Positions 247-16,197 of a stretch of DNA of 32,531 nucleotides are shown here, one piece after another. The stretch's first letter is position 1. The number at the start of each line of letters is the position of its first letter. The translations under genes and the position numbers were made by a program. The stretch covers positions 1 through 32,531 of the forward strand of contig CANNCG010000003.1 of the NCBI GenBank assembly GCA_947502965.1, given 5' to 3'. Under the pieces are notes generated by a model. That model had not been told where the DNA came from. It searched no databases and saw nothing but the letters and a program-made list of their open reading frames with translations. This DNA is from a bacterium (GTDB taxonomy: Bacteria; Margulisbacteria; Marinamargulisbacteria; SXXA01).

Positions 247-840
247 CTAGTAGCTCACCCCATAATAAACCGTCTTTCCCAACTCAATGAGTACCGTCTC
301 CGCCATTTCGGCATGCCGCCACCATGTCTCAGGATCTACCCCATCGTCACTGCCTTGGACAAACAGGTGCATGTCTGTCGGCAATACATCCCGAAAGGTC
401 CTGTATGACCGTGCAGTATGAAAGCGAGAGGTCACCAGCAAGACGCGACGTGCATGCATGGCCTGCAATATAGGCAAGCTCCCCGTCGCATTGGTTTGGG
501 TACTCAGGGCCGCGTCTTCGATGAGAATATTCTCTGAAGGCACCCCCAAAGATACCGCATAGTCGGCCATCATAGCGGCCATCGAGGTGTCAAAAAAAGG
601 CCCCCCGGTCATCAGTATACGGGGGGCTACCCCCGCATGATAGAGACGAACCCCCTCCCGAACACGGTCGCCAGTCGAACCCGCCAATACCACAATGACA
701 TCGGCACGGTCCGTCGGACGCGCTGTCACCAACACCGAAAAAACAGCCCGCATCCCAATCGGAAAAAAAATGAGACCCCCGATACTAATAAACAGGACAG
801 ACAACGCGGCATAAAAAAGGCGTTTAGGCTTGGGCATCAT
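247..840 (-). CDS. DUF218 / YdcF-ElyC-SanA family protein
   Basis: 197-aa ORF. N-terminal hydrophobic segment, then VIVVLAGSTGDRVREGVRLY...ILMTGG, typical of the DUF218 fold. ATGATG start lies 6 nt after the giant gene stop, so it is probably co-transcribed. Confidence 0.65.
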   Translation of the reverse strand: MMPKPKRLFYAALSVLFISIGGLIFFPIGMRAVFSVLVTARPTDRADVIVVLAGSTGDRVREGVRLYHAGVAPRILMTGGPFFDTSMAAMMADYAVSLGVPSENILIEDAALSTQTNATGSLPILQAMHARRVLLVTSRFHTARSYRTFRDVLPTDMHLFVQGSDDGVDPETWWRHAEMAETVLIELGKTVYYGVSY

Positions 841-846
841 CCAAAT

Positions 847-3800
847 TTACCGTTTCCGCAACACCGCTATTTTGGCCTGGCGTTCTTCATATTTGGTTTG
901 CAAATAGGTTTCCAAGACGCTTAGCTCCGTTTTGATCCCGGCCACTTCCGCCCGTAGGGAAACCACCTCGCCCAAACGCGCCCCTATATGTTTGTTTGCA
1001 AACGACATACCGACAATCGCATTGACCGTAGATTCCCCCGCGGCATCCGTCGCCGTCCATGCCTGCCCAATAATTTGAGCCGGATTGACAACCAACGACG
1101 CCGTAATCGCAACCGCTGTCCCATCCTGAAACCCTGACGCGATGAGATAATCTCCCGCACGTACCACGCCACGAACACGTACCGGCACCTGCCCCATAAA
1201 GGCCACCAAGCCAAAGGCATTTAGCTGTTCAAGGCCAGGAAAATTACCCGCCACAATAGGCCGCGAGCTGATCACACGCACACTGCGGGCCCCTGCCGTC
1301 GCACGTGACACCTGGCCATTGAAAACACCGACCACATCGCCAGGTCTCAAATTTTCAGCAGAAATTTTGGGTAAATACTCCGCATAATCCGCCTCAGGCG
1401 ACGCAAACTGTACGCCCCCAAACCCATCCATTTCAATGGAGCCCAATACCGTAGGCTTATATCCTAAAGTACGCACCTTTGTCGTATCCTTATGAATAAA
1501 CGTCATGAAATTAGCATCCGTTGCGGTACCATAATTCACCAAGGCCATATTTTGCGAACTCCCCTTTGACACGATGAGCACGGTATGCGAAAAAGGCGTC
1601 CTGGGATCGATACCCGTCATAGAGGGCCCCCCCTCTGCCTCACTACGCCGGACCACGTGCAATCCAGCCGCAGGCGACGTGGTCCCGATCCCCACACCTG
1701 CGCGGATAGGCAACTCCGTCAGCACCGTGGTGTCATTGGGATTGACGTATCCAAAAACAGACACCGTAAACCCTGTTTTCAAAGACGTCCCCTCTCCCCA
1801 ATTGACCAAGTTTGCAGCCACAAAACTTGATTTTTTGGGATATGTATCTACGATCAACTTGGAACTGGGGTTGGGCGAGGTTGTGCTCGTTTCGCCGATA
1901 TTTATCCGTAGCTCTGAAATCGCATTACTGCGGTTATAGCGTCCCATAAAATACTCATGCGTATTGTCACTATTCCCATCGGGGCTGTAAATACGGCCCC
2001 CAGAAAAATACGCTTTGGCACCCCAACCCGCCGGGGAGGTGAAGAAGCTCGTCGTCTTCACGCCCAGCTGCACATCCCCACTCACCACAAAGGGTCGGTC
2101 AATGGCCGCCAAATGGGCATTCCCCATAGGAAATCCGATCCCCACATGCCCAACCCCTACCGCAGATACCATCGACGTCGTCACCGTGGACGCATTGTGA
2201 CCCGACATGAGGTACAAGAATGAGTCCTGATTGCCACCACGCGCCACGTGAAACACCACACTGGCCTTGGTCTTGGCCTGCTCTAAGATGGCTTTTACGT
2301 TGACATTGGCTGTCGCAATATTGCCAGAGCTACGGGCATAGGCCCCCTTAGTCGTTTTCACCATATCGCCCGCCTCGATAAGTGCATCCGCCATCACCGC
2401 AGAGGCCGTGTCATCAGTCCCCTGTATAGCCGTGAACGCCAATGGCGTCACTTCATGATGGACAGCCTCATTCCCCAGATAGTTCAATACCATCTCCCGA
2501 CCAGAGCCCGCGGGGCTTGTGGTCTTAATTTTCAAAATATTCCCCGTGGCAATCCGTCGTCCGTCACGGTCCATCCCATAGGCCTGAAAAGCAATGTTCG
2601 CAGTAGAAATGACGGCAACATCGTCAACCGTGGCATGCCCAATGACCATGGGCCCGCCCATAAAGACCGCCGCTGCTTTGTAGCCAAATTTGTTGGTCGC
2701 GTATTCCTCAATCGCCAAACCGGTCACATCCACCACAAGCCCGTTGACTTTGACGGCTTGCGAATTTGGATTTGCCAAAGCCGCCATTGTATAGGCATTC
2801 TCTGAAGTCAAACGATATCCCAATCCTGTGACATGGGTGTCCTTCGAATAGGCTGCCAGCGTCATCACCACATTATGAATAGGCAAGGTCTCCTTGAATT
2901 CTGGTGGCGTCGCATATAAAACACCCAAAGACAGGCTTTTAAGTGCCATATAATTGGAGTTCACGAAGCCCGCAGTAAGGGGATTTCCAGTACTAATATT
3001 AAAGTCCCCGATCACATGCAGATCCTGAGACGGCACCAAGGTGCCAAGTCCCACCTTGCCCGCCGTATCCATCGTCATGGCGTTTGGCGATACCAGCGTG
3101 CTCACCCGAAACGGATATTGGGAAATATCCGTCGCCCCAATAGACAACGTCGCTTGGGGATCTGAGGACACCACACCCACGCGGGTCTTCCCAAAACGTA
3201 GCAGTTCCGTTTGATTCACATCTTTGACCAGCAACACATCCCCAGCATCTTTCCCCCACATGACAACCCCATCAGCAGAAACCGCTGCCGATTCACGATA
3301 GTGTCCCACAAAGGAAAAGTCTCCCGATTGGCGTACGGCATAGCCATGCAGCTGCGGATAGATTACCGGATACGGCGGATTGTCTAGCCATTTCGGTACG
3401 TTGGTCCATGTCGTATCATCACCAGCCGTCATAGATCCGCTCACCGCCATCGCCATATAGCTCTCCGTGGGCGATCTGCGCCAAATCCCCAGCTTGCCTT
3501 CTTGGCCCACCACCAGAGACACCCCATTGGCGGCAGCCACACGCAAAGGCCCAGCCCCACCTGTAGTCTGGGTAGTGTTCGTTGAGATGAAATCAACTAT
3601 TTCAGTAGAACCATTCCAAACAGACCCCACCGGCTTAAGCGCTGAAGTAACATCCGTATTGTTAGTACGAGGAATGACACCGTAGGTATAAGACACGCCC
3701 CCAATTTGGTAAGTTCCCAATAAAGAATATCTCCATCTACCACCCCCCTCATCAATCTGTGAACTAACTGTCCAAACAACATCCACTGGAAAAGTAAATT

Positions 3801-6800
3801 TGGCCTTATCAAAGGTCATATCGAACATCGCCGTCGGAGCGGTATTCCCGAGACCTGTCCGACCTGCCCCGGTGACCACAAAGGGATTCGAGGTGGTCGG
3901 ATTGTCAATCCAGAGGGCATGCCCCGTACTGGCCGAATGCACCACATTGAGAGACGCAATGGCCTCCGTAGAGCCAATCCCAACCGACCCCGTTTGCAGC
4001 GCCGTCAGTATGGGGGATTGTGCGGCATTTCGCACCAGAAGTCCCATATCCCCCGTCGCATGTACCAAGAGACGCGTGATTTCCAGCTGTGCCTCTCCGC
4101 TTGCCGTCCAAAGCCCCACATTGGATGTGACAGTGACTATCAACGCATTGGGCGTAGCTAACACACCCACCAGAAATGGACCAACGTTTGCGTTTGCGGT
4201 GACAGTACTTCCCACATGCAGCGTCGCATCCGGTGTCGGCGACGTTCCCAAATCCATCAATGTAAACACACCCATTGTCCCTTGGGTGTCGCCATTGTTT
4301 TCCGCCAAAAATACCGCCGATGCCTTAAACCCATCTACCGCAAAGTCTTCATTGAGCGGCAACAATGTGGAGCTTTCTGACTCCAATTGACTCAAATCTA
4401 CCCGAACCCCTATCGCCGTCTCGTTACTAGTCACCACGCCATCCAAGACAACATGGGTCCCGATAAACAGACTGGATCGATTACCGGTTCTAGGCCCAAA
4501 GCCCATGGTCACTTTGTTCGCACTATAGCCCGAGGCAAATGCGGTGGTATTCAGAGATGCGCTAATGCCTAGCGAATACTTTGATTGATCGAACATGGTT
4601 GAGACCACGTGCACGTGATTCCCGGTCGTCGTGTCTTGCTCCCACCACATCCCATCATTTTTGGCAATAATGCCATCTGTGCCATACATCACCATATTCA
4701 TGGTAGGTGGCCTATCACTTCCATAATTATGGAACATGCGAAGCAGGGGCACATTACGCCTATCCTCTCCGTTTGTGTATTTATAATGCGGCACGATATG
4801 GTCGGCAACCATTACGTCATTGAGCAATACCAATCCACTGAGGCTCTGATTCGACAAAACACTGCTACTGCTAATGGGAGTCATATACACGCTTTGACCA
4901 ACTTTCAGATTTCCCGTCGTGATAGTGAGGACGTTTGCTAGACCATTTGTTAGACCAATATTTAATGTTGGCAAAAACATATCGTCCGTAGACATCAGCG
5001 CATTCACGCTCAGATACTTGTTATTCATACTCGCTATATGAAGATCATGTCTAAAAAGGGCATTCTGAGACACCCACAAAGCAAATGAGGTAGCCAGTCC
5101 TACAGGCTTTTGGGGAATAAACAGCGTGTTAAACGTCGCAACATCCGCGATCAAGCCCTCGCTAGTCCATTCTTTTTGTGTAGACACATGATCCTGAAAA
5201 TTCAACGTTACGCCAGACGTATTGTCAAACCGCAAGGTGTCCAACACTTCCAAATCAACACCTGAGGCTATGATGGTCATTGTGTTCAAAGTGGCAGATT
5301 GTCCCAACGGCAATACCAAGCGGTTAAACGTCGCAGACGTTGCGTTCACCGACACCGTGTTGATAACTGCATCCTTCCCCGTGATAACCCCAGAAACCGC
5401 CAGTGCCGTAGCCGGTGCCGTCGTCCCTATCCCAACATTGCCCCCCAGCAACACCAATGGGTTACGGGATGTGCTGATAGCGTCATGGCCCATAGTCACC
5501 GCGATGCCATAGGCAACGCCGTTGCTACCAAGTTGCAAATCACCCAAATCAACCCAAAGCCCAACCGCCTCTACAGGCGTCACCCCAGTACCAAACTGAC
5601 CCAAAATCCCATCCGCAGCAAAAGACATTTCATAGCCAATAAAAGGAACAAAAACCGACGAAATCGAGCCATTTTTTCCCAAATTCATCGACACCACACG
5701 TTGCGTATAGTTTTGCGTTAATTGCTCAGGAAGCGCGATGTTTTTCGCTATCGTCAGCGCATGGTCTGGCAACAAGGATCCAATCCCCAGATGACCCGCA
5801 CTGGTGATCGCCACAGACGTACCCAGCTGCAAGGCACCGGAAACAAGCTCCCCCAACCCCGCCTGGTTCGCAGAAGCCGTCCCGGCAACAGACCACGCCG
5901 CCGCATTGGGCAACTGCCCTATCGCAACGCCGAGATCACCCCCCGTCATGACCTGCGTTGTCCCTGCCATCAGGGCAAAGGCATCCGCATCGCTATAGCC
6001 TTTGACGGACAGTTTCGCAGAGGGAATCGGTTCCCCAACAGACAGATACCCAAGGCCATCAGACCCCATGGCGGTCCTGGAAGCCGTCTGTATCCATAGT
6101 GGGTTCGTTAAGGCGGAGACAACATGTAAATTGGCACCGGGCAAGAAAGAGGTTCCTAAATCCTCACCGGTATGAATCCCGACGTTTCCACTGGTCTGGA
6201 GCCCAGACCTAAAGATGGCCGCAATCTTCGTACCCACGACAGCGTCCCCATTGGGCAACGTCATAGTGGCCCTCAAAGACTGCATGTCGACATACACGCC
6301 CCCGGCAACCTCGCCAGGCGCCATACCCAAAGGGGTCCCATTCCCTACCAGCCCTACCCCTACCCCCGTAAATACCGCGCTACTTGGCGTGATACGCGGT
6401 CCCATTCCTGTCGAAATACGGGCTGCACGCACATCGCCCAACCCCGTTGTCACCCCATACCCCGTATAGAGCCCCAGCACCCCATTTCCAGAGGCAATCG
6501 TGGCATTGGCAGTCCCTACACGCAGCACTGAGTAGGTCACCCCTAACGACGACTCCCTGACGGTATATGTCATAAACGGTTGGTCTGACACACGCCTGTT
6601 TTCGTTATATCCCGCCACGCGATTGGCAACACCGAGAATCGCACTGCTCACATTGGCCATCACCCCTGTATTGGGATTTCGGAAGATCAGTGCCTGATCC
6701 GCAAAGGCATTCTGAGACGACACAAACAAGGTGGTATACGGCGTATAGGCCGACGGGTTTTGGGTCGCAACCGGAGCCATTTGCAAATAGGTCATCCCTA

Positions 6801-9800
6801 TAGCGCCCGTATGCGTCACCCTATTCGCACTGATAACGAGTGGCGAATTAACCGTCAAGGTTTCACCGGTAATCGCGGAAGAAATAGTCACCGTAGGCAC
6901 AGTCAAAGACCCCAAAAGCCCCGACCCAGACACCCCCAAAACTGTATTATCGGCAAACCCACTATGAGCACCCACAAAAACAACATTTGCCGTCCCGAGA
7001 ACCGAATGCAAGACCTTCGCGTCAAATTGATTTGCGTCTTGTACACTTTGAATATTAACCGTCGTATTGCCATCGATTTCCAGCGTGCTCAGTACTTCCA
7101 ATGACATAGGATTCCGATTGTTGATATTAAACGTGGTAATACGCGCGTCTCCCCCAAAAAAAGCATTGGTCGTAATCGCAGACAATGTCCATTCACCCCC
7201 GGAAGCGATGAGACTGTTTGCACGAATAGATCCATTAATATCCAAAGCCACGTTGGGCTGACTCACCCCCATCCCAACATTGCCCCCCAAGAAAGTGGCC
7301 GCATATCGGCCTGCACCCGCAGTCTTAGAAATACCCATATCGACATAAACCCCCATCACAGGATTGCCTGTGATGGCTACGATGTCTTTCAAATCCAAGA
7401 CCATTCCTCTGGCCAATTTCGAACCGGCACTCCCCTCAAATATAGCAGAAGCATCTGTACTCACTACCACCTCTATACCCGTCAGGTTATGGGTCCTCGT
7501 GCTATTCAAGGTCTGACGAATATCTTGCATAGGAAAATGAAGGGGCATGGCTGCCGACGTTGTGAATTGGCGCACCATCGTAAACTGTCCCAAAGGCGTT
7601 GTCGTCCCCAACATCACCTCACCCAAAGACGATACCAGCAACCCTGAATTGTCCGTATTGACAGACAAGGAAGACGATTGCAGTCCCCCAAAGGACGTCA
7701 TTGGCGCAGACAGCGTCCCCACTACCGACAACGCCTGACCAGGTTGCGACGTCCCGATGCCCACACCCGTATTGTTCACACTCAGAACAGAGGCCCCAGC
7801 CGCAGAAAAGAGCGTCATGGCCGCCCTATCTGTAGTCGCTGCAACCGACAATTGGGAATTCGGCGAAGCAGTTCCCATCCCCACAAATGCATTGGACGAC
7901 ACAAATAGCGCATCCAGCCAAACAGAATCGACTTTTTTTTGCACCCATAACGGCGTGTGGGTCCTCCCAGCAACAATATGAAGCGAGGCACTAGGCACCA
8001 TATCACTATCTGAACCTGAAATAACCCCAACGTTCCCACTGCTTTCAGTTCCCACCAAAAAGGCAGCCGCAAAGGCAGACCCCGTCACCACCGTGCCATT
8101 GCTCAATGTGGTTTTCGTACGCAAATTATCCGATACCGTGACAGACAGACCCACGAACCGGTCATGCACATAACTAATCCCCGCCAAGGCAAGGTCCATC
8201 CCAAAAAAGCGTGCAGATCCTGGTGTTGATCTGTCTTTAAACCCCAATCGTATGGATTGCAGCGCCTTGCCTTCTGTGATGTTGAGGGACACAAGGCCTA
8301 TCACAGCAAAACGGCTGCCCTCTGAATAGGTAACCTCATTGCTGGTGGTGATACGCAACACGCCTACTGTGTTTTCTGTTGCCCATTTGATAAAGCTCAC
8401 ACCCGCCATTGACCCGTTGCCCTTAAAATAAGGCACTGTTTCGGGAAGAACCGACGATGTCACACTCAGGTTCCCTTGAACAGAGAACCCATTTTTTTTC
8501 ACCTCGTAAAAAAGTTCCTTGGTGATGGAATCAACAAACAAGTTGCCATTGTCAGACGAAATCGAAGTCACCCCAGACGGGAAGATCCGCAAATAAGGGG
8601 TCCGCAAACGGTCAAGCACCAGAAGAGAGGTCACATTGGTCGTAATAGAAAACGTCACGTTTGTACCCGCCATGGCATTCACAAACATAGAGGCCGTTGG
8701 CAAAGTCATCGCCGTGGAAAAAACGGACCCCTTGACATGCAGCGACGCGGTTGGGAGCGTCGTACCAATCCCTACCCACCCGGCATCGGTAATCCGCAAG
8801 CGTTCTTGGGGATAGGCCTCGCCTCCTTCAGGATCTGTCACAAAAGCCAATGCCGAGGCCGCATCTGTACCGGAAGCGAACGTTTTTACCCCCAAAACAC
8901 CAGCGCCAGACGGACCGGACTCATCAAAGTTAGAGAGAAGTACCAGCCCTACCGCATGGCCAGGAGTCGCAACCGACGCCTGTAAAATCAAGGGATTCCA
9001 GGTCCTATAGTCAGAGGCCACCGCCACTGCATCTGTATTAGTGAGTCGATAGGACTCCGTTTTCATATGTACACTTGAGGCGGGAGACGCGGTCCCAAAC
9101 CCTGCACGCGAAGCCTCCGTGATCACGAAGGTCTGATCATTCACACCCAAACGAGCAACCTTAATTTCACCCGCAGTACTATTCAAAGAAGAGGCGGTGA
9201 AGGTCCCATAAACCCGCAAGGCTTCCGAAGACAATACCCCGCCCACAGCCATCTTGTTCACCGATACCGATTGCAGGCCCGCCGTCGACACGACAGTCAC
9301 CGCATTGAGCGTCGCCATCGCGTTGACAGAGACAAAGGACTGCGCAAAAAGTCTGTCCCCCACCACCAAACTCTGCTCAGGAATAGACAGGGTTCCCTGC
9401 AAACGCAAGTTGTCCTGGCGCAAGGTTGTCACATACAAATCCTGAAAATGTCCCCCTTGCGTCACCTTCACATTATTGGCCACATTGAGCATGCTAAATG
9501 ACGCGACTTCTTGCTCTGTTAAAAAACTGGCAGCAGGCGCATTTGTGGCATAAATTGTGCCCGCTACTTCCAACGGATACGCTGGCGTTGTGGTCCCAAT
9601 TCCCACATTACCCCCCATAAACACAGCCACCCTACGCGATGTATCTCTATTGGAAGACGCCGTAGCGGACAGCCCCACCACAACCCCGCCTGTGGGAACA
9701 TTCAAGCCTGACAAATCCACCTTGTACCCCGTACCCACCACACGCTTGATACCGTCCTTATCGCCCAATTGGTTGGTATAATTGTTCCCAGAGTTCGAAG

Positions 9801-12800
9801 ACAGCGCCACATACGTACCGATCAACGGCTTGGCCACATTGTTGTCTCCTACCTCCACATCAATAATCTGAAAGGAAAAATCTGACGAAGGCAGCGACTG
9901 AAATTGTTTCTGCAACATCCATTGCGCCGTAGGATTTGAAATACCCATTCCCACATAGCCATTGGTACCGATGGTGAGGGTACCGCCAGCGGACAACGTC
10001 TCTGCGCGCATCGGCGCAACCATCCCGATAGACTGTATATCCCCCTTAATATCCAAGGCCGTTTTAGGCGTTTCAGTTCCAATCCCAACGCGCCCTGGCG
10101 CATTGATATAGATCGCGTTTAAAACGTTAATCGTGCTAATCTTCAGTCCCTCTGAAATATTAAACGCCTGCGCCCGCAAGGTCCCATAAACTTCCAATAA
10201 GTTCCCAGAAACACCCAATTGCGCATTCGGAGTCCCCCCTATTCCAATATCTCCCCCCATAAAAATAGCCGGGTAACGATACCCAGGGTCCGTAAATTGC
10301 TGTAACGTCACATCGCTCACATCTACATGAAGACCCACCGCCCTGGCTTTACTGGAAAAATAGGTAGGACTATTCTTATAGGGCAGATTTTTCATGTGGA
10401 TATTTAACCCTGCGATTTCCATAGGCGGCGTAACGCCCTGCCAATCAGAGGGATTTGCAGGCCACGTTTGTATTAAAACATTGAGACTTGCCGCATCATG
10501 GCTACGCGAATTGGCCAACACCCCATCATGCGAGACCACACTCTGAACACGCACCATAGTACTGAGCTCACCAGCCCCAAAAGAAATATTATTGCTCGCT
10601 GAAAAGGAATCCGAATAACGACTATATTTCTCGACTTCTGTATTGGCGGTAACCCGCAAGATACCCGCCGCTGTCGGTGTCGCAGAGACCCAATACATAT
10701 TGGTCGGTGCAAAAATTGAGAAAGAAGGCACCCCGGCATCTACACGCCACATCCCCACGTAGCCCCCAGGACCCTCCCCAAGGGTAAACACCTTGGAGAT
10801 ATTGATCACACTGTCAGTGGTATCCAAAACCAATTCTTTATTGAAAACCATCAATTCCCCTATGCTGCCAGCCTGAATATCACTCAAATTTAGCTGCTGC
10901 GCATAATAATCCCCCTCAACAATAAAATTATCCATCACAATCGCTGGGGCATTGGCACTCGCAACAATATTGAGCGTCCCTATAATATCCAAGGAATATT
11001 GGGGTTGTGTTGTCCCTATACCCACATAGCTATACAAGGGGGGTATGGCTTGGGGATCAAAAATCGTGTCATAAAAAACATCGGTGGTGCGATTGTCTCG
11101 GTTGATGGGAATCCAATCAACGAGTTGATTGTCCACCAAAAATTTATTGGCATTAACCGAAGTAACCGCCACATGGGTCGTTGCTCCCAAATTTGCCGTG
11201 CCTATTTGCAATCGCCCCATGAGGGCATTCCCTCCCACACTCAATGCCGCTGTCAGGGGTCGGGTAATGGCAATACCAACACGGTTATTCAACACCGCAA
11301 AAGGAGACCCCTCCCCTATGGAAGCACTCCCACCCGGACCTATGCGAAAAACATCGGTCTGCGTACGCGAAACGCCAAAGGTGTAGCGATCGGTTCCATC
11401 CAGATCAAAGGTAATCACGGGACTGACGGAAGTCCCTACCAAGCTCTGCAAACTACTGCGATTGGAGATTTCTAGCAAACTGTTGGGAGAGCTGGTTCCA
11501 ATCCCGACATTGCCCACCGCAGCAATACGTCCATAAGCATTCACATTGGCCGAAGGGAAATAAATATTGGGCGTCGTATTGATATAAGACCATACCAAAA
11601 CAGAGGTACTGGCCGACAATTGTTGGCCATCGGGAAAGATAAAGGCCTCTGCAGAAATGGACCCTACAGAGTCCAAATAGCCATACGCAGGATCTGCAGA
11701 AGACACCACTGCCTGGCCATTGACAAGCAAATCAGGAAACTTACCAACGCCCACATTGCCAGAGGCCGAAACGACAAATGACGGCGACGACACAGGGTTT
11801 TCTGTTCCTACCGTGAGAAACAACGGAGCACCCAGAGAAGCACCATGAACAACAAACTGAGCATTGCCAGGCGCATTAAGCTGAAGGGTGTCCATCACCA
11901 CCAAGGCATTGCCCGTTGGCGTCGTGGTCTTGATCCCCAGCCCACCATGTTGCGTATACACCAACGCCTGAGCGGTCCCGCCCACCATATTCAGCACCAA
12001 GTTTTGGTTATGCAATGCCAATATCGCCCGAATCTGAGGCTCAAGATGGGCATAGGCAAACCCAGGAGGCAGCGACAAAACGGCATCATGGTTGAACGCC
12101 CCTGCCATTTCACCTGAAGGAAGAAGGTGACCCTGCGCTTTCAGTCCATCCACAATGGCCGCCGCCGAGGCCCAATCGCTGGGATCTGTTAAGATCTCCA
12201 AAAAGTGAACGGCACCCACAGGTTTTGGATATACGGTTAGCGCCACATTTTTGGTGGCAAGCTGGATAGACAACCCTGTTACACGCGTATTGATACCAAC
12301 ACCCCCGGAAGCCCGAATCAAAAATTGGTTTTGGGTAGCCGCCGCAAAGGCCCCACTGGCCGCATCTGCCCAAACAAAAGACCCATGATTATTGGCCGCA
12401 GCACCACGCCCCATCGCCACAGAAAAATCGCCGTAAGCCGCGTTTCCCTGCCCCCCCAAAACCGTGGCATAGGCCCCACCGAGGCTATGACTCGCCCCAC
12501 CAATGGCATGCGAAAAGTTGCCACTCACCAGATGATCATACCCAAAGGCCGTGGTCACAATCCCCAAATTGGCATCATCCCACTGGGTACCCTGATAGGT
12601 ATCCGTGCCACTCAAATACCCCACACGGAAAATGCCTTTGGCCGGATGATAGACCATACGGGTCCCAGCCCCTGTCGCCGATACGGTTGCCGTGATCGGG
12701 CTAATGCCTGGGTTAACCGCCTCAAATCTCCCCGTTAAAAGCAACCCCAAGTTACCACTGACATGCAAATTGGCCTGAGGATTGGCCAAGCCCACGCCAA

Positions 12801-14514
12801 ACCTGTCCTCTAAGGCAACAAAAAGGGGTGTATCACCTCCCAAAGAGGTCCCTTTTTCAACACGAAATACGCCATCTTGTTGCGCATTAACCCCCATGGT
12901 GTAGCGCTGTTGCGAAGTCGTATTATGCCCCGCTGTAAAGGTGATCGCTGGATTTTTTGTCGGCTCCGCGTCAAAACGGTTGGGGGCGGCAATCTCCAGA
13001 AGCGAGGTGGGGTCAGGACGACCTATCCCCACGTTGCCTTGCATGTAATACAAGCTGTTCTTACTATTACGCAGCCAGTACGTACTCTTCGAAAGGGTTA
13101 ACCGCAAAGGCACCCCGTTGATCAATAAATCTTGGGCATTCAGGGTTCCCATGACTTCCACTCTGTGGCCAGAAAGGGTGGTCCCAATCCCCAAGCTCCC
13201 GGTTGCAGAGATCTGCAACAGCGGAATATTTGCCGACGACGATGCCAAAAAAACAGGGCCGGTATCCCCCGATTTTCCAGCGACCTGCAAACGCGCAACA
13301 GGCGTCACACCCACCCCCAAACCAATCCCAGAATTGTGAATCAAGTCTGCCACAGAACCCATACTTGGCGGAGAAACAGGGCCAGCCCATCGGGCCACCC
13401 GATCCGCACGACCAGTGCCCAAAATCCCGGTCAAAGAACGCCATTCCTCCGTCCCAAACCCCGTGCTTAAATATCCCTGAAAATCTGAAAATGTGCCGAC
13501 AGAAGCCCAGCGAATCGTGCCGGTATTTCCCGAAGAGTTGGTATCCAGGCGAAGCCCCCCATTCACGTCCAGCTTTTCCTGCGGTGTGGCACGACCAATG
13601 CCCACCTGATGAGACAGAATATAGAGATTATAGGTAGGCTCTGTGGTCTTGACCCAAAAGTTTGATGCTGTAAGTGGATTGCCATTGCGGGTCAAATGGG
13701 TTGCATTCACAGTCGCTGCCACGTGAAGTGAAAAGCCCGTACTCGGAAACGCCGTCCGGATCCCCACCGGAAATTTGGTGGTATAAATATTGGCGGTAGT
13801 GACCGTACTCCTCAGCCAAGACATGCTATGGGAAAGTGGACGCCCATTCAAATACATATCTGTAAAATTTGCTATCCCCGCCACATCGACGGTATACCCA
13901 GGCGAAAACGTGCCTAACCCCAAACGCGCGCCACGCACCACCAACTTATTTTGCGTCACAACCAGCCCTGTTTGCACAGAAAATGTAGAGACGAAATTCC
14001 CAGACACGTCGGATGCCAAACCTGCTAAGCCCCGTTCCGCGATCCGCGCGTGCACCGCATAAGGCAGCGCTGTCATCGCAAAGGTCGCCGTTTGAGAAGG
14101 CAAAACCAACTGTAAAATGAGATTGGGAGACCGCAAGTTCGTGGGCATCAAAAGCCCGTTTTTCCCCAAAACAAAGGAAAACCCATTCTGTTTAAAAGAC
14201 AGATTACCCAAGCCCTCGGTATACACCACCGTTCCATTCGAAACCAAATTTACAGTGGCAGCAAAGACTTCTGTCCCATTTTGTCCCAAATAACGTCCCA
14301 ATGAAGACGAAAAAAACACATCTCGGACCGTAAACTGTACAGGGTTAGGGCGCCAAGCCTGCACCACCACAGAGGGACTCGTCGCGGTATCGATCACAAA
14401 AATAGAGGTATCAAATGATTGGGCAGGAACCACACCCGCCCCAAAGACACAGAAAACGGCACTGAAAAACAGCTTGGCGCAAAAGGCTGAGTTTAAATAC
14501 CGCTTGTTATCCAT
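847..14514 (-). CDS. Giant secreted repetitive fiber/adhesin-like protein (4555 aa): signal peptide, tail-fibre-like beta-helix repeats, distinct C-terminal domain ending in a predicted coiled coil
   Basis: Single uninterrupted 13.7-kb ORF; ATG at 14514 preceded by AAAGGA 7 nt upstream. N-terminus MDNKRYLNSAFCAKLFFSAVFCVFGAGVVPAQS looks like a signal peptide. More than 20 degenerate copies of (F/L)(M/L)GG-N-V-G-I-G-T-x-x-P-x-x-x-L-x-V (e.g. GNVGIGTTSPAAGLHV, GNVGIGTTAPATALAV, RVGIGTETPKTALDI). One segment, SHAIGGASHSLGG...GSFVWADAASGAFAAATQNQFLIRASGGVGINT, resembles phage tail-fibre / phi29 gp12-type repeats (from memory, not searched). Composition is T/S/G/V/A/N-rich with few charged residues. 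The C-terminal ~150 aa (ADYAEYLPKISAENLRPGDVV ... ELSVLETYLQTKYEERQAKIAVLRKR) ends in heptad-like sequence. Confidence 0.85.
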   Translation of the reverse strand: MDNKRYLNSAFCAKLFFSAVFCVFGAGVVPAQSFDTSIFVIDTATSPSVVVQAWRPNPVQFTVRDVFFSSSLGRYLGQNGTEVFAATVNLVSNGTVVYTEGLGNLSFKQNGFSFVLGKNGLLMPTNLRSPNLILQLVLPSQTATFAMTALPYAVHARIAERGLAGLASDVSGNFVSTFSVQTGLVVTQNKLVVRGARLGLGTFSPGYTVDVAGIANFTDMYLNGRPLSHSMSWLRSTVTTANIYTTKFPVGIRTAFPSTGFSLHVAATVNATHLTRNGNPLTASNFWVKTTEPTYNLYILSHQVGIGRATPQEKLDVNGGLRLDTNSSGNTGTIRWASVGTFSDFQGYLSTGFGTEEWRSLTGILGTGRADRVARWAGPVSPPSMGSVADLIHNSGIGLGVGVTPVARLQVAGKSGDTGPVFLASSSANIPLLQISATGSLGIGTTLSGHRVEVMGTLNAQDLLINGVPLRLTLSKSTYWLRNSKNSLYYMQGNVGIGRPDPTSLLEIAAPNRFDAEPTKNPAITFTAGHNTTSQQRYTMGVNAQQDGVFRVEKGTSLGGDTPLFVALEDRFGVGLANPQANLHVSGNLGLLLTGRFEAVNPGISPITATVSATGAGTRMVYHPAKGIFRVGYLSGTDTYQGTQWDDANLGIVTTAFGYDHLVSGNFSHAIGGASHSLGGAYATVLGGQGNAAYGDFSVAMGRGAAANNHGSFVWADAASGAFAAATQNQFLIRASGGVGINTRVTGLSIQLATKNVALTVYPKPVGAVHFLEILTDPSDWASAAAIVDGLKAQGHLLPSGEMAGAFNHDAVLSLPPGFAYAHLEPQIRAILALHNQNLVLNMVGGTAQALVYTQHGGLGIKTTTPTGNALVVMDTLQLNAPGNAQFVVHGASLGAPLFLTVGTENPVSSPSFVVSASGNVGVGKFPDLLVNGQAVVSSADPAYGYLDSVGSISAEAFIFPDGQQLSASTSVLVWSYINTTPNIYFPSANVNAYGRIAAVGNVGIGTSSPNSLLEISNRSSLQSLVGTSVSPVITFDLDGTDRYTFGVSRTQTDVFRIGPGGSASIGEGSPFAVLNNRVGIAITRPLTAALSVGGNALMGRLQIGTANLGATTHVAVTSVNANKFLVDNQLVDWIPINRDNRTTDVFYDTIFDPQAIPPLYSYVGIGTTQPQYSLDIIGTLNIVASANAPAIVMDNFIVEGDYYAQQLNLSDIQAGSIGELMVFNKELVLDTTDSVINISKVFTLGEGPGGYVGMWRVDAGVPSFSIFAPTNMYWVSATPTAAGILRVTANTEVEKYSRYSDSFSASNNISFGAGELSTMVRVQSVVSHDGVLANSRSHDAASLNVLIQTWPANPSDWQGVTPPMEIAGLNIHMKNLPYKNSPTYFSSKARAVGLHVDVSDVTLQQFTDPGYRYPAIFMGGDIGIGGTPNAQLGVSGNLLEVYGTLRAQAFNISEGLKISTINVLNAIYINAPGRVGIGTETPKTALDIKGDIQSIGMVAPMRAETLSAGGTLTIGTNGYVGMGISNPTAQWMLQKQFQSLPSSDFSFQIIDVEVGDNNVAKPLIGTYVALSSNSGNNYTNQLGDKDGIKRVVGTGYKVDLSGLNVPTGGVVVGLSATASSNRDTSRRVAVFMGGNVGIGTTTPAYPLEVAGTIYATNAPAASFLTEQEVASFSMLNVANNVKVTQGGHFQDLYVTTLRQDNLRLQGTLSIPEQSLVVGDRLFAQSFVSVNAMATLNAVTVVSTAGLQSVSVNKMAVGGVLSSEALRVYGTFTASSLNSTAGEIKVARLGVNDQTFVITEASRAGFGTASPASSVHMKTESYRLTNTDAVAVASDYRTWNPLILQASVATPGHAVGLVLLSNFDESGPSGAGVLGVKTFASGTDAASALAFVTDPEGGEAYPQERLRITDAGWVGIGTTLPTASLHVKGSVFSTAMTLPTASMFVNAMAGTNVTFSITTNVTSLLVLDRLRTPYLRIFPSGVTSISSDNGNLFVDSITKELFYEVKKNGFSVQGNLSVTSSVLPETVPYFKGNGSMAGVSFIKWATENTVGVLRITTSNEVTYSEGSRFAVIGLVSLNITEGKALQSIRLGFKDRSTPGSARFFGMDLALAGISYVHDRFVGLSVTVSDNLRTKTTLSNGTVVTGSAFAAAFLVGTESSGNVGVISGSDSDMVPSASLHIVAGRTHTPLWVQKKVDSVWLDALFVSSNAFVGMGTASPNSQLSVAATTDRAAMTLFSAAGASVLSVNNTGVGIGTSQPGQALSVVGTLSAPMTSFGGLQSSSLSVNTDNSGLLVSSLGEVMLGTTTPLGQFTMVRQFTTSAAMPLHFPMQDIRQTLNSTRTHNLTGIEVVVSTDASAIFEGSAGSKLARGMVLDLKDIVAITGNPVMGVYVDMGISKTAGAGRYAATFLGGNVGMGVSQPNVALDINGSIRANSLIASGGEWTLSAITTNAFFGGDARITTFNINNRNPMSLEVLSTLEIDGNTTVNIQSVQDANQFDAKVLHSVLGTANVVFVGAHSGFADNTVLGVSGSGLLGSLTVPTVTISSAITGETLTVNSPLVISANRVTHTGAIGMTYLQMAPVATQNPSAYTPYTTLFVSSQNAFADQALIFRNPNTGVMANVSSAILGVANRVAGYNENRRVSDQPFMTYTVRESSLGVTYSVLRVGTANATIASGNGVLGLYTGYGVTTGLGDVRAARISTGMGPRITPSSAVFTGVGVGLVGNGTPLGMAPGEVAGGVYVDMQSLRATMTLPNGDAVVGTKIAAIFRSGLQTSGNVGIHTGEDLGTSFLPGANLHVVSALTNPLWIQTASRTAMGSDGLGYLSVGEPIPSAKLSVKGYSDADAFALMAGTTQVMTGGDLGVAIGQLPNAAAWSVAGTASANQAGLGELVSGALQLGTSVAITSAGHLGIGSLLPDHALTIAKNIALPEQLTQNYTQRVVSMNLGKNGSISSVFVPFIGYEMSFAADGILGQFGTGVTPVEAVGLWVDLGDLQLGSNGVAYGIAVTMGHDAISTSRNPLVLLGGNVGIGTTAPATALAVSGVITGKDAVINTVSVNATSATFNRLVLPLGQSATLNTMTIIASGVDLEVLDTLRFDNTSGVTLNFQDHVSTQKEWTSEGLIADVATFNTLFIPQKPVGLATSFALWVSQNALFRHDLHIASMNNKYLSVNALMSTDDMFLPTLNIGLTNGLANVLTITTGNLKVGQSVYMTPISSSSVLSNQSLSGLVLLNDVMVADHIVPHYKYTNGEDRRNVPLLRMFHNYGSDRPPTMNMVMYGTDGIIAKNDGMWWEQDTTTGNHVHVVSTMFDQSKYSLGISASLNTTAFASGYSANKVTMGFGPRTGNRSSLFIGTHVVLDGVVTSNETAIGVRVDLSQLESESSTLLPLNEDFAVDGFKASAVFLAENNGDTQGTMGVFTLMDLGTSPTPDATLHVGSTVTANANVGPFLVGVLATPNALIVTVTSNVGLWTASGEAQLEITRLLVHATGDMGLLVRNAAQSPILTALQTGSVGIGSTEAIASLNVVHSASTGHALWIDNPTTSNPFVVTGAGRTGLGNTAPTAMFDMTFDKAKFTFPVDVVWTVSSQIDEGGGRWRYSLLGTYQIGGVSYTYGVIPRTNNTDVTSALKPVGSVWNGSTEIVDFISTNTTQTTGGAGPLRVAAANGVSLVVGQEGKLGIWRRSPTESYMAMAVSGSMTAGDDTTWTNVPKWLDNPPYPVIYPQLHGYAVRQSGDFSFVGHYRESAAVSADGVVMWGKDAGDVLLVKDVNQTELLRFGKTRVGVVSSDPQATLSIGATDISQYPFRVSTLVSPNAMTMDTAGKVGLGTLVPSQDLHVIGDFNISTGNPLTAGFVNSNYMALKSLSLGVLYATPPEFKETLPIHNVVMTLAAYSKDTHVTGLGYRLTSENAYTMAALANPNSQAVKVNGLVVDVTGLAIEEYATNKFGYKAAAVFMGGPMVIGHATVDDVAVISTANIAFQAYGMDRDGRRIATGNILKIKTTSPAGSGREMVLNYLGNEAVHHEVTPLAFTAIQGTDDTASAVMADALIEAGDMVKTTKGAYARSSGNIATANVNVKAILEQAKTKASVVFHVARGGNQDSFLYLMSGHNASTVTTSMVSAVGVGHVGIGFPMGNAHLAAIDRPFVVSGDVQLGVKTTSFFTSPAGWGAKAYFSGGRIYSPDGNSDNTHEYFMGRYNRSNAISELRINIGETSTTSPNPSSKLIVDTYPKKSSFVAANLVNWGEGTSLKTGFTVSVFGYVNPNDTTVLTELPIRAGVGIGTTSPAAGLHVVRRSEAEGGPSMTGIDPRTPFSHTVLIVSKGSSQNMALVNYGTATDANFMTFIHKDTTKVRTLGYKPTVLGSIEMDGFGGVQFASPEADYAEYLPKISAENLRPGDVVGVFNGQVSRATAGARSVRVISSRPIVAGNFPGLEQLNAFGLVAFMGQVPVRVRGVVRAGDYLIASGFQDGTAVAITASLVVNPAQIIGQAWTATDAAGESTVNAIVGMSFANKHIGARLGEVVSLRAEVAGIKTELSVLETYLQTKYEERQAKIAVLRKR

Positions 14515-14523
14515 GCTAATCCT

Positions 14524-15459
14524 TTAAAAGGCGAACCCCATGGACAGGTAATGTTTACCATTAAATTCTGGATGTTCACTTTTTTCCATCGCATAGTCCG
14601 CCGAGATCGAACCCAGTGTCAAGCCGATACCCAAGCTCACACCCCCCTTGACATTTTTCAAAACCAGAAACTCTTTATACCCACCAGACACCGTGATGTA
14701 AGGGAGAAAAGTAGGCGTATAAACAGCAGCAACGCTGTTGATCATTCTTTTGCTTTCCCCTACGATTTTGAACTGCCCCAACAGCTGGACATCCGGCATA
14801 AACAGGTAGCGAATCCCATACACCGTCTGGAGAGATAGGGTTTCGCTTCCCCCATTGGAGTATTTCACCTTGAGACCAGAAGCCACATTGCGCAAGACAA
14901 TAGAAGTCGCAAAGGTAGGGGTATCGTACAGCATCCCCGCGTCAAAATTGACACCGGAGCCTGTGTAGTCGTGAATTTTTGTAAAGTAATAACTCCCACT
15001 AAGACCAAGGTGAAGGTTCTCCGTTTGGGAAAAGCCATAGCTCAACTTCACCACACCATTCATATAGTCAAAATACGCCCCTGTCTCCAGAAAGATCGCG
15101 GTATCCCTATCTGAGGTAATGTCTTGCGTGGTCACCGCGATCCCACGCACCTCCGTCAGCATAATCCCTGCACCAAACACCCCATAGGGTGTCTTAATAG
15201 TTCCCGCCACATTTTTAAATTCAACCTCTTGCATCAGCTGGGAGTAGAAGAAGTTCAGGTGCCGCTCAGACGGAATCCCCACAATCCCTGCGGGATTGTC
15301 GAAGATACTGCTGGACAGCTTGCTAAACCCCTCGATATTGGCCATCCGAATCATCCGCGCCGAAGACCCTACGTTGGTGCCTTGGAAAAATTCCGCCTGC
15401 GCCAAAAGAGGCACGCCCCAAAGACCTATTAAACACAAAAACAGAGCGACGCTTTTCAT
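14524..15459 (-). CDS. Outer-membrane beta-barrel protein, possibly PorP/SprF-family T9SS membrane protein
   Basis: 311 aa with signal peptide (MKSVALFLCLIGLWGVPLLAQA) and C-terminal ...SMGFAF (terminal aromatic residue typical of OM beta-barrels). N-terminal AQAEFF...SSIFDNPAGIVGI resembles the PorP/SprF N-terminal signature (QQDPQFSQY...INPAYAG, from memory). The stop overlaps the SD of the giant gene; the ATG overlaps the upstream stop (ATGA). Confidence 0.5.
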   Translation of the reverse strand: MKSVALFLCLIGLWGVPLLAQAEFFQGTNVGSSARMIRMANIEGFSKLSSSIFDNPAGIVGIPSERHLNFFYSQLMQEVEFKNVAGTIKTPYGVFGAGIMLTEVRGIAVTTQDITSDRDTAIFLETGAYFDYMNGVVKLSYGFSQTENLHLGLSGSYYFTKIHDYTGSGVNFDAGMLYDTPTFATSIVLRNVASGLKVKYSNGGSETLSLQTVYGIRYLFMPDVQLLGQFKIVGESKRMINSVAAVYTPTFLPYITVSGGYKEFLVLKNVKGGVSLGIGLTLGSISADYAMEKSEHPEFNGKHYLSMGFAF

Positions 15460-16118: not shown

Positions 16119-16197
16119 CATGCCCCTTCATATCGGACGAAAAGAGGCAAAACTTGCATGCGACTATACCCGTTCCAAAATAGAATCGGGATTCTGC

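Follow-up and report, generated by a model that had tools for sequence, protein, structure and literature searches.

The reverse strand of the window (the whole 32,531-nt stretch of DNA that was analysed) carries a stop-free reading frame for a protein of 4555 aa, and the locus raises the question of what so large a protein is, how it would be assembled and what would hold it at the cell. The features are collected in Table 1. The frame was found to be a real gene: the chance of so long an open frame is approximately 1e-95, and the NCBI MAG contig and the ENA contig are 99.97% identical to the window, without indels and with the same 4555-aa product, five substitutions separating the window from the NCBI contig. 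Additionally, two Logan assemblies showed 100% identity over the first 281 and the first 2025 codons, and an orthologue of 4544 aa (P0106, 52% identical) was colinear with the giant. The source is metagenome-assembled and the protein is repetitive, as would suit an artefact of assembly or a pseudogene in decay whose frame is still open by chance. We nevertheless give this reading practically no weight, because the four other assemblies are concordant, the gene is free of DNA-level tandem repeats able to cause mis-assembly, the internal repeats are just 25-40% identical in protein, and the frame stays open over 3-5.7 kaa in orthologues at 25-52% identity. The uninterrupted ORF reported in the first-pass annotation is thus borne out, and no stop or frameshift was found to split it. 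Its ranking among the largest bacterial ORFs did not hold, as relatives reach 5651 aa and bacterial proteins above 30,000 aa have been reported (bioRxiv 10.1101/2023.11.21.568195).

Table 1. Positions in the window, strand and description of the giant gene, its parts and its neighbours.
Feature	Position	Strand	Remarks
DUF218/ElyC-like gene	247..840	-	downstream of the giant, 6-nt gap; Pfam DUF218 E 5e-26
Giant fibre gene	847..14514	-	4555 aa, single stop-free frame
C-terminal amphipathic helix, 50 residues	853..1002	-	aa 4505-4554; in the predicted 19-kDa fragment
Peptidase_G2-type intramolecular chaperone core	1000..1422	-	aa 4365-4505
Predicted autocleavage site A4375/D4376 (SPEA/DYAEYLPK)	1387..1392	-	invariant columns, gp12 alignment
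Last capping-loop motif	1633..1719	-	aa 4266-4294, PIRAGVGIGTTSPAAGLHVV; precedes the chaperone domain
Super-repeat region	3805..10257	-	aa ~1420-3570; 3-4 diverged tandem copies of a ~610-aa multi-module unit
Super-repeat copy R3	4840..6537	-	aa 2660-3225
Super-repeat copy R2	6688..8370	-	aa 2049-2609
UspA1/YadA-head-like left-handed beta-roll repeats, then NQFLIRASGGVGINT	12280..12552	-	aa 655-745
Conserved N-terminal beta-rich domain	13915..14418	-	aa ~33-200; first capping loop at its end; from alignment
Signal-peptide-like N-terminus	14419..14514	-	aa 1-32, MDNKRYLNSAFCAKLFFSAVFCVFGAGVVPA/QS (VPA/QS); read from the sequence
Partner 1, PorV/PorQ/FadL-fold outer-membrane beta-barrel	14524..15459	-	311 aa, ends ...GFAF
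Partner 2, small protein with leader and C-terminal T9SS-CTD-like domain	15456..16121	-	~220 aa

The start of the gene agreed with what had been read from the letters. The SD sequence AAGGA lies 5 nt before the ATG and is overlapped by the stop codon of the upstream gene, and the product opens with a signal-like leader; a comparable basic-then-hydrophobic leader opens every full-length orthologue. The protein is T/S/G/V/A/N-rich, as had been noted, with these six residues making up 55% of the total. The body had also been called nearly charge-free, and this proved incorrect: D, E, K and R account for 10.7-15% of residues along the body and for 31% of the terminal helix. Exact-sequence look-up returned no record for the giant or for its relative P0229. 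Promoter and terminator scans gave chance-level results only, and no tRNA genes or Rfam families were found within the window. The sole NCBIfam match on the giant, NblS (E 0.054), and a match to Peptidase_M11 were rejected as noise.

We found that the last ~190 aa of the giant form a divergent Peptidase_G2 domain, a true relative of phi29 gp12, with the auto-chaperone fold of the gp12 C-terminus. A search with the C-terminal region found 54 homologues, and in 30 aligned sequences D4376, A4378 and E4379 are invariant (DxAE motif). In the alignment, D4376 falls on the first residue of 3gqh (DFAEYF), the fragment cleaved from gp12; this residue is D692 of gp12, and 691 is the final residue of mature gp12* (PMC6542822). 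The alignment predicts self-cleavage of the giant at the equivalent bond. The C-terminal family profile also matches the Dpo31 chaperone domain D4. An HMM search of the C-terminus for Peptidase_G2/IMC, suggested at the outset, gave a score just under threshold: PF11962 reached 14.7 bits on the whole protein and 22.7-24.2 bits on the C-terminus alone, against a cut-off of 25. The same model is matched by 28 of the 30 aligned relatives at E <= 0.01 (best 6e-9), and several homologues of the region carry a precomputed PF11962 match. The distinct C-terminal domain with a heptad-like helix that had been described earlier is therefore present and can be delimited, with the ~190 aa ending in a helix of 50 residues (residues 171-220 of the AF2 model) that has largely hydrophobic heptad a-positions (I, V, V, L, L, R, L). 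Peptidase_S74 (PF13884 type) gave no match on the whole giant at E <= 0.1 or on the C-terminal 350 aa at E <= 10, and TIGR04183, TIGR04131, PF18962 and PF13585 gave none on the giant at E <= 0.1 (Pfam, NCBIfam). These HMM searches agree with the initial failure to recognise either an S74 peptidase or a T9SS type-B CTD.

Upstream of this domain, the chain is marked by a GNVGIGTxxPxxxLxV motif, which we identified as the capping loop of S74 tail fibres and of the mosaic adhesive trimeric (MAT) fibres of Bdellovibrio bacteriovorus (Bd3182, Bd2133 and Bd2439; consensus V-G-G/N-pi-x-x-P-x-x-x-L; Caulton et al. 2024, PMC10769870). In a PDB sequence search, the motif regions of the giant matched the MAT fibres 8ojn and 8ond. 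The strict form, [VIL]G[IVLM][GNW]x..P, occurs 16 times, compared with a mean of 0.12 and a maximum of 2 in 2000 shuffles, and a profile built from these copies recovered 22 at an irregular spacing of 40-500 aa. More than 20 copies, irregularly placed roughly 100-250 aa apart, had been noted earlier; the motif and its irregular recurrence are real, but a count of about 22 requires the degenerate copies and the measured spacing is broader. The last capping loop has an identical position relative to the G2 domain in the aligned relatives.

Two further modules were recognised in the shaft. The profile of the aa 655-745 segment matches UspA1 3pr7 (E 9.8e-31) and 3ntn and, via its NQFLIRAxGGVGIxT end, Bd2133 8ond (E 1.4e-4) and 8ojn (E 3.3e-4); Pfam matches to YadA_head, UspA1_rep and LbR are weak. 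The SHAIGGASHSLGG... stretch (aa ~680-745) had been likened to phi29 gp12 and Peptidase_G2-type proteins. As the segment profile finds the UspA1 head and MAT fibres and no phi29 protein, we rejected a gp12 beta-helix for this part of the chain. In relatives of 600-700 aa, the beta-roll and capping-loop module directly precedes the G2 domain. The second module is the long super-repeat, which was found by fragment-against-fragment comparison, a whole-protein BLAST self-comparison having shown the identity match alone; local alignment of R2 with R3 extends over ~560 aa with z = 35 against shuffles.

The opposite end of the protein is also conserved. A signal peptide followed by the same N-terminal domain of ~110-170 aa was present in at least 57 of 79 relatives, and the profile of this domain has a further match in at least 13 shorter G2-type fibres from other phyla, where it immediately follows the signal peptide. 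The domain, which matched no Pfam family, is thus common to many secreted G2 fibres, and we regard it as a candidate for the cell-proximal or anchor end. An exhaustive search gave 809 matches. Cluster representatives with D[YF]AE[YW]L at a distance of 182-205 aa from the C-terminus number approximately 40 and have lengths of 2455-5651 aa. The named relatives of the giant are Margulisiibacteriota, and the family identifies some of the 'very large genes' of Margulisbacteria (bioRxiv 10.1101/2023.11.21.568195). One orthologue of 2965 aa (g88) lacks the equivalent of aa ~2355-3769. Conservation is fairly even along the length of the closest orthologue, whereas aa ~3600-4070, immediately ahead of the chaperone, fails to align in more distant ones, in which both flanks align.

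The G2 chaperone and the capping loop are classic elements of phage tail fibres and tailspikes, and a scan of species genomes with an 8-sequence alignment found 430 relatives of the G2 subfamily versus a single one in IMG/VR. That one relative, together with the two elements, would suit a phage, prophage or tailocin fibre within a degraded prophage, which we consider highly improbable for several reasons. The giant bears a signal peptide, the 32.5-kb window contains no phage genes, the neighbours are housekeeping (ThrRS, FtsA, prephenate dehydrogenase and aromatic amino-acid genes) and the sole PHROG match is short and of unknown function. Moreover, a family of 2.5-5.7 kaa is far above typical phage fibre size, and the giant is linked to outer-membrane-type proteins in a three-gene cassette that occurs in different housekeeping neighbourhoods of diverged genomes. 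The leader, the capping loops and the G2 domain instead fit a secreted fibre of the cell that is related to phage tail fibres, as the first-pass annotation had proposed.

The two genes preceding the giant complete this cassette. The barrel gene lies 9 nt upstream of the giant, and the stop codon of the small-protein gene overlaps the barrel start by 4 nt. The order small protein, barrel and fibre was found in 9 of the 10 loci examined (20-32 kb), in unrelated genomic neighbourhoods. The pair is absent from all 77 fibre loci of other phyla, and within 8 kb of the fibre gene of one family member (P0121, 3514 aa, locus L092) the pair is missing, which means that its adjacency to the fibre gene is not obligatory. 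The barrel matches the NCBIfam PorV_fam model NF033709 with an E of 2.4e-14 and 53.6 bits, below the cut-off of 90, and NF033711 with 30.9 bits, below the cut-off of 220. Its AF2 model (pLDDT 81.8) ranks the T9SS translocon chains 8gl6_F and 6h3i_F first and second in Foldseek (E 1.9e-11; TM 0.72 and 0.70), with FadL behind them. Only 22 homologues of the barrel were found in 5.8e9 proteins, and the named ones are mostly Margulisiibacteriota; at best, the barrel is a distant PorV/PorQ relative. The small protein shows a CTD-like pattern, FYPNPA...GVYFYLL...GKVAVIP, of which YPNP...GVYFY...K is conserved in the orthologue alignment. It scores 21.2 bits with TIGR04183 (cut-off 23) and 17.1 bits with PF18962 (cut-off 27); four of five orthologues match Por_Secre_tail (best E 4.3e-4) and two of five match CHU_C, all below threshold, and its profile gave no PDB sequence match. 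We regard the barrel and the small protein as conserved, co-operonic partners of the fibre and as a lead on its secretion or anchoring. The DUF218/ElyC-like gene is probably outside the fibre system, as its position downstream of the fibre gene is not conserved at other loci.

FadL/PorV-fold barrels serve in type IX secretion to keep CTD-bearing proteins on the cell surface. The PorV fold of the barrel, the CTD-like domain of the small protein and the giant size and low-charge repetitive make-up of the fibre, which recall SprB, could be read as marks of a type IX cargo, a gliding or adhesion protein for which the PorV-like neighbour acts as PorP/SprF does for type-B CTD cargo. This is very unlikely in our judgement: the giant has neither a type A nor a type B CTD, it ends in a G2 chaperone whose removal by cleavage is predicted, and the CTD-like domain is borne by another protein. 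The relatives are also named Margulisiibacteriota, outside the Bacteroidota/FCB group from which, to our knowledge, T9SS is known; we know of no type IX secretion in the Margulisbacteria lineage, and our literature search found no paper pairing the two. With no SprB or T9SS-cargo features found, the giant is not a routine SprB-type adhesin, and the first-pass reading is not overturned on this count.

Taken together, the evidence leads us to favour, with reasonable though not full confidence, a Sec-exported, chaperone-assembled homotrimeric surface fibre that has a dedicated outer-membrane anchor or export pair and a likely role in attachment. In this model, the signal peptide would export the chain, and the G2-type chaperone (aa ~4365-4555, a beta-domain with a long helix) would trimerise first and set the three chains in register, allowing the beta-structured shaft, made of capping-loop motifs, the UspA1-like beta-roll and 3-4 copies of the ~610-aa super-repeat, to fold from the C-terminus backwards. 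The chaperone would then cut itself off and depart as a 19-kDa fragment, leaving the new C-terminal end as the distal tip and the conserved N-terminal domain at the cell. The mature chain, lacking signal peptide and C-terminal fragment, would have a mass of ~453 kDa and the trimer one of ~1.36 MDa; at the ~0.4 Å per residue of Bd2133, a fibre length of roughly 0.15-0.2 micrometres would be expected. Barrel and CTD-like small protein may serve as an outer-membrane dock or export aid, a model that borrows from the type IX attachment complex and its PorQ:PorZ and PorV:PorU pairs. The fibre would probably serve to attach the cell to surfaces or to other cells. Maturation of gp12 has been reported to depend on ATP; should this hold for G2 domains at large, G2 maturation outside the cytoplasm would be awkward.

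A fibre that is secreted and chaperone-assembled in the same way may instead be structural, forming a surface layer, sheath or matrix without a specific binding function. We think this unlikely, although neither a lectin or TNF-like tip nor any other binding tip was recognised ahead of the cleavage site, the closest orthologue is fairly evenly conserved with no hypervariable tip, and the very long fibre occurs as one copy per locus. The aa ~3600-4070 region that cannot be aligned in more distant orthologues fits a diversifying distal part, and the characterised relatives (phage fibres, MAT fibres and UspA1) are all adhesins (PMC10769870). We retain the attachment fibre as the preferred reading. 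A bolder extension, which we put forward as doubtful, is that the barrel and the CTD-like protein constitute a self-contained, T9SS-independent outer-membrane device for the export and/or anchoring of megadalton trimeric fibres assembled by a chaperone in Margulisbacteria, a sister phylum of Cyanobacteria. If this were true, the CTD-PorV 'handle and socket' pair would predate type IX secretion and extend more widely than it, and the device would represent the type of surface anchor still to be found for MAT-type fibres.

The significance of the locus lies in how it extends a recent theme. Non-viral tail-fibre architecture in bacteria was recently described in the Bdellovibrio MAT fibres, whose attachment to the cell is still open (PMC10769870). 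The present locus takes this idea to an extreme, with chains of 2.5-5.7 kaa and up to a predicted ~1.4 MDa per trimer, and has a different chaperone, of the G2 type and predicted to cleave itself, that apparently works outside the cytoplasm and so bears on the need for ATP in G2 maturation. The two linked outer-membrane-type candidate partners turn anchoring or secretion into a testable three-protein problem, and they extend the occurrence of PorV-like and CTD-like parts to a lineage from which no type IX secretion is known. More broadly, fibres with a signal peptide, the N-domain and a G2 domain make up a family of 430 loci in many phyla, for which the N-domain still has no Pfam model.

Comparison with known systems revealed partial similarities to several of them. 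The phi29 gp12 pre-neck appendage (3gq7, 3gqh and 3suc) shares with the giant the D-x-x-E at its cut site (S691/D692), and in gp12, the Dpo31 tailspike (D4; 28nb) and the giant alike the domain sits at the extreme C-terminus, with helical structure after it. In contrast, gp12 has a ~45-residue insert that the subfamily of the giant lacks, as stretches separated in 3gqh are contiguous in the alignment, and the giant ends in a single 50-residue helix, unlike gp12. The gp12 body is a right-handed beta-helix and that of the giant is not; gp12 is part of a virion, while the giant is a cellular protein with a Sec-type export signal. The heads of the trimeric autotransporters UspA1 and YadA share the left-handed beta-roll of 14-15-residue repeats of the GGxxNxAxGxxS type (aa ~655-720), but the giant has only about three head-like repeats and no YadA-type C-terminal membrane anchor, with no YadA_anchor match and no match in a Pfam scan of the whole protein. 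Its trimerisation would be expected from the G2 chaperone, unlike that of UspA1 and YadA.

The partner genes and the type IX systems were compared in the same way. PorQ and PorV are the surface anchors of PorZ and PorU, respectively (Glew et al. 2017, PMC5562754); both these pairs and the partners of the giant set a FadL/PorV-fold barrel beside a CTD-like beta-sandwich protein. Compared with the T9SS pairs and the SprA-PorV translocon (6h3i and 8gl6), the partners score below the cut-offs and their binding is putative, and the giant, which is the large cargo of its locus, has no CTD. SprB resembles the giant as a multi-thousand-residue, low-charge, repetitive secreted protein with an adjacent outer-membrane partner gene. 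We found no sequence or domain relationship between the two, the giant lacks a type-B CTD, and its assembly would differ in using a C-terminal trimerisation chaperone with predicted self-cleavage.

The closest overall resemblance was to the MAT fibres, although these come from another phylum. Both are encoded by chromosomal genes and begin with a signal peptide and a conserved beta-rich N-domain, of ~130 aa in MAT fibres and ~110-170 aa here, a likeness of position and type. Both continue into a long beta-structured shaft with the capping loop, trimeric in MAT fibres and probably so in the giant, and a MAT subgroup has a C-terminal self-cleaving chaperone, as the giant is predicted to have. 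The chaperone is of the S74 type (SDxxxK) in MAT fibres and of the Peptidase_G2 type (DxxE) in the giant, and the length is ~1000 aa as opposed to 4555 aa. The ~610-aa internal super-repeat and the PorV-fold barrel and CTD-like partner genes belong to the giant and not to the MAT fibres. Thus, the MAT fibres are the nearest described kind, from which the giant differs in chaperone type, size and partners.

We found the giant gene to be one open frame of 4555 codons with zero stops, a length expected by chance with a probability of approximately 1e-95. Its start ATG follows AAGGA at a spacer of 5 nt, and the upstream gene ends with its TAA stop inside this ribosome-binding region. Judged from sequence, the N-terminal stretch (MDNKRYLNSAFCAKLFFSAVFCVFGAGVVPA/QS) looks like a Sec signal peptide. 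Using the upstream 311-aa protein, we found this region again in an NCBI MAG (GCA_964202675.1, contig CAXNJR010000002.1), one ENA assembly and two Logan assemblies, which showed 99.97-100% identity to the window and no indels; the 4555-aa product was called in two of them. No DNA tandem repeats were found within the gene except a trivial 21-mer pair. A 4544-aa orthologue (P0106) was colinear with residues 16 to 4555 at 52% identity, with each 100-residue window 38-73% identical, and orthologues of 2965, 3046, 3764 and 4411 aa were colinear at 25-36% identity. Because the frame stays open over such divergence, the giant is a functional gene, and the uninterrupted frame, signal peptide and Shine-Dalgarno sequence described in the first-pass annotation were borne out.

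The sole Pfam match on the giant was Peptidase_G2 (PF11962, the intramolecular chaperone of the phi29 gp12 type) at residues 4367-4420, which was sub-threshold, scoring 14.7 bits with the whole protein and 22.7-24.2 bits with the C-terminus alone (cut-off 25). The C-terminal 420 residues had 54 homologues, several with precomputed PF11962 matches, and an alignment of 30 sequences revealed that D4376, A4378 and E4379 of the DYAEY motif were invariant, as were GQ and GD further along. The profile of this alignment matched the C-terminal fragment cleaved from phi29 gp12 (3gqh, E 5e-7), beginning precisely at fragment residue 1 (DFAEYF...), as well as full-length gp12 (6qz9 and 3suc) and D4, the chaperone domain of the Dpo31 tailspike (28nb, E 1e-7). 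From these correspondences, we infer a self-cut at A4375/D4376, which would free a 19-kDa fragment; gp12 cleavage is reportedly ATP-dependent. The Pfam scan, C-terminus included, revealed no S74 domain, another self-cleaving chaperone type, in agreement with the initial reading.

The first-pass annotation was thus upheld for the most part in what it observed and partly right in how it read this: the relationship to phi29 that it suspected exists in the C-terminal domain (3gqh), but it had been placed in the wrong region. A profile of residues 635-760 and homologues matched the UspA1 head (3pr7, E 9.8e-31; also 3ntn) and a grass ice-binding beta-roll, and its NQFLIRAxGGVGIGTNxPxxQLHV end matched the Bdellovibrio fibres 8ond (Bd2133) and 8ojn, whereas no phi29 gp12 match was found among the PDB sequences, and a gp12 likeness of this segment was rejected. 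These matches indicate that the segment is a short left-handed beta-roll of the YadA/UspA1 type with a capping loop behind it. The same module directly precedes the G2 domain in relatives of 600-700 aa, which probably explains the earlier association.

Residues G, S, T, A, V and N made up 55% of the giant, consistent with the fibre-like composition noted previously, although the accompanying "almost no charged residues" was overstated, as these account for 10.7-15% of the body and 31% of the final 50 residues. The recurring motif that had been described was real: the pattern [VIL]G[IVLM][GNW]x..P occurred in 16 copies, whereas 2000 shuffles gave 0.12 on average and never more than 2, and a profile made from these copies found 22, irregularly spaced. 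This motif is the capping loop of the mosaic adhesive trimeric (MAT) fibres of Bdellovibrio. Fragment self-comparison aligned residues 2049-2609 with 2660-3225 over ~560 residues (z = 35 versus shuffles), and weaker copies (z about 10) span ~1423-1763 and ~3296-3566. A unit of ~610 aa is therefore present in 3-4 tandem copies that have diverged. Residues ~2355-3769 are missing in the 2965-aa orthologue, indicating that super-repeat number sets the length variation in the family.

An exhaustive HMMER search with giant residues 31-400 (window 13315-14424) revealed 809 proteins at E <= 1e-3, in sharp contrast to zero matches in a word-indexed search; negatives from indexed tools are thus unreliable on low-complexity fibre sequence. 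Among the best 150 of the 809 matches, 59 were at least 2000 aa, and approximately 40 representatives of 2455-5651 aa were colinear with the giant at the N-terminus and carried D[YF]AE[YW]L 182-205 residues before the C-terminal end. The giant is a typical family member in the upper size range. It is no routine case of a curated family, the possibility that the first-pass annotation had allowed for, and no model reached threshold on it; no Pfam family covered the N-domain. The G2 subfamily comprised 430 loci among 185,579 species genomes of many phyla (Gemmatimonadota, Eisenbacteria, Verrucomicrobiota, Planctomycetota, Acidobacteriota, Bacteroidota and Margulisbacteria) and only one locus in IMG/VR. 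Proteins of 79 fetched loci were 450-1420 aa long; in at least 57 of them, an "xYQAV" N-domain came after a signal peptide, and the giants' N-domain profile matched this position in at least 13. Three elements are new: a G2 chaperone within a secreted cellular fibre, the giant build of super-repeats, and a pair of PorV-like and CTD-like partners specific to the lineage.

The 311-aa partner showed weak PorV_fam and PorQ matches (E 2.4e-14, below cut-off) and ended in GFAF. Its predicted model (pLDDT 81.8) was a beta-barrel with an N-terminal plug region, which best matched chain F of the T9SS translocons 8gl6 and 6h3i (TM 0.72 and 0.70), ahead of FadL. Only 22 homologues were found among 5.8 billion proteins; four came with a source name, namely two Candidatus Margulisiibacteriota, one labelled only "bacterium" and one Thermoproteota archaeon. 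The ~220-aa protein begins with a leader, and its C-terminal ~90 aa form a conserved domain (YPNP...GVYFY...GKGKxAVIP), which matched Por_Secre_tail slightly under threshold, as in four of five orthologues. The order small protein, barrel, fibre was present in 9 loci including the window, with different surroundings in each, and the partner profiles had no matches in 77 fibre loci of other phyla. The DUF218 gene downstream of the giant was not conserved.

The partner pair was absent within 8 kb of one giant (P0121, locus L092), whose upstream genes encode NUDIX, a Phage_integrase-type recombinase and a short Peptidase_M50; its partners may be encoded elsewhere, or its "TPMxVxFQA" N-terminus subtype may use another anchor. 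Second, much weaker matches to the barrel profile, a few kb off the cassettes of two Margulisbacteria genomes (L020 and L031), suggest paralogous barrels. The split fibre of L031 is probably a sequencing frameshift rather than two genes. The "Thermoproteota archaeon" label of L090 looks wrong, because the contig carries bacterial-type fatty-acid synthesis genes and the cassette.

Features of the window and of related loci
Location	Strand	Feature
Window 847-14514	-	Giant fibre, 4555 aa
Window, directly upstream of giant, 9 nt away	-	311-aa barrel gene
Window, end overlaps 311-aa gene start by 4 nt	-	~220-aa CTD-like gene
Window 16286-16744	+	152 aa, no real family
Window 16749-18473	+	Short ThrRS, 574 aa, tRNA_SAD from residue 107
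Window 18480-19106	+	208 aa, no real family
Window 19103-20185	-	360 aa, only weak partial DnaJ match
L088		Cassette, fibre 2965 aa
L089		Cassette, fibre 3764 aa
L090 (GCA_042576685.1, JBHPEX010000003.1)		Complete cassette, fibre 3046 aa
L091		Cassette
Two JGI contigs		Cassettes, fibres 4411 and 5651 aa
L020		Cassette, fibre ~1600 aa
L020:16371-17324	-	Second match to PorV-like barrel profile, E 1e-14
L031 (Marinamargulisbacteria single-cell genome)		Cassette, fibre ~1270 aa
L031:61-990	-	Second match to PorV-like barrel profile, E 8e-9
L031:6741-10552		Fibre gene after barrel: 240-aa ORF with signal peptide, overlapping 1037-aa ORF in other frame
L092:8001-18545 (ENA ERZ27280245 k141_35613)		Lone giant-family member, 3514 aa

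The other window genes were housekeeping genes (ThrRS, FtsA, prephenate dehydrogenase, chorismate mutase and lipoate ligase), and the window contained neither phage nor tRNA genes and gave no match to Rfam. No TGS domain was detectable in the ThrRS, and the 360-, 152- and 208-aa proteins recur beside ThrRS in related contigs. The window differed from GCA_964202675.1 by 5 substitutions across 20.9 kb and from another ENA contig (L006) by 15 substitutions and one gap; as it is identical to neither, several near-identical strains were sampled. Named relatives were Margulisiibacteriota or Marinamargulisbacteria, which points indirectly to the source lineage. Outer-membrane tethering proteins (bioRxiv 10.1101/2021.05.31.446380) and an excess of very large genes (bioRxiv 10.1101/2023.11.21.568195) have been noted in the Margulisbacteria lineage, and our literature search found no link between the phylum and type IX secretion.

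In the best supported mechanism, the chain would leave the cytoplasm via Sec, and the C-terminal G2 chaperone would trimerise, fix the register for shaft folding and then remove itself. A trimeric fibre of ~1.36 MDa would remain, attached through its N-terminus. The Bd2133 tip spans 150 A with 370 residues, or 0.4 A per residue (PMC10769870), and at this value the fibre would measure roughly 0.15-0.2 micrometres in length. In PorQ:PorZ and PorV:PorU, a barrel of the PorV type keeps the CTD-bearing protein at the surface (PMC5562754). By analogy, the fold, the weak matches to known families and the strict linkage of the genes suggest that the partner pair may serve as an outer-membrane dock or export aid for the fibre.

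Comparison of the whole giant with PDB sequences revealed only 8ojn, deposited as "cell wall surface anchor family protein", which we take to be a MAT fibre from the study of Caulton et al. 2024. That study describes 21 MAT fibres of Bdellovibrio, about 1000 aa long and displayed on the cell surface. Their signal peptide precedes an N-domain of ~130 aa that is conserved, the trimeric beta-helix meanders and bears capping loops (V-G-G/N-pi-x-x-P-x-x-x-L), and there is either an S74 chaperone or an adhesive tip (Caulton et al. 2024, PMC10769870). The giant shares their capping-loop motif and clearly belongs to a known kind, the trimeric surface fibres of bacteria that resemble phage fibres and carry a self-cleaving chaperone at the C-terminus.
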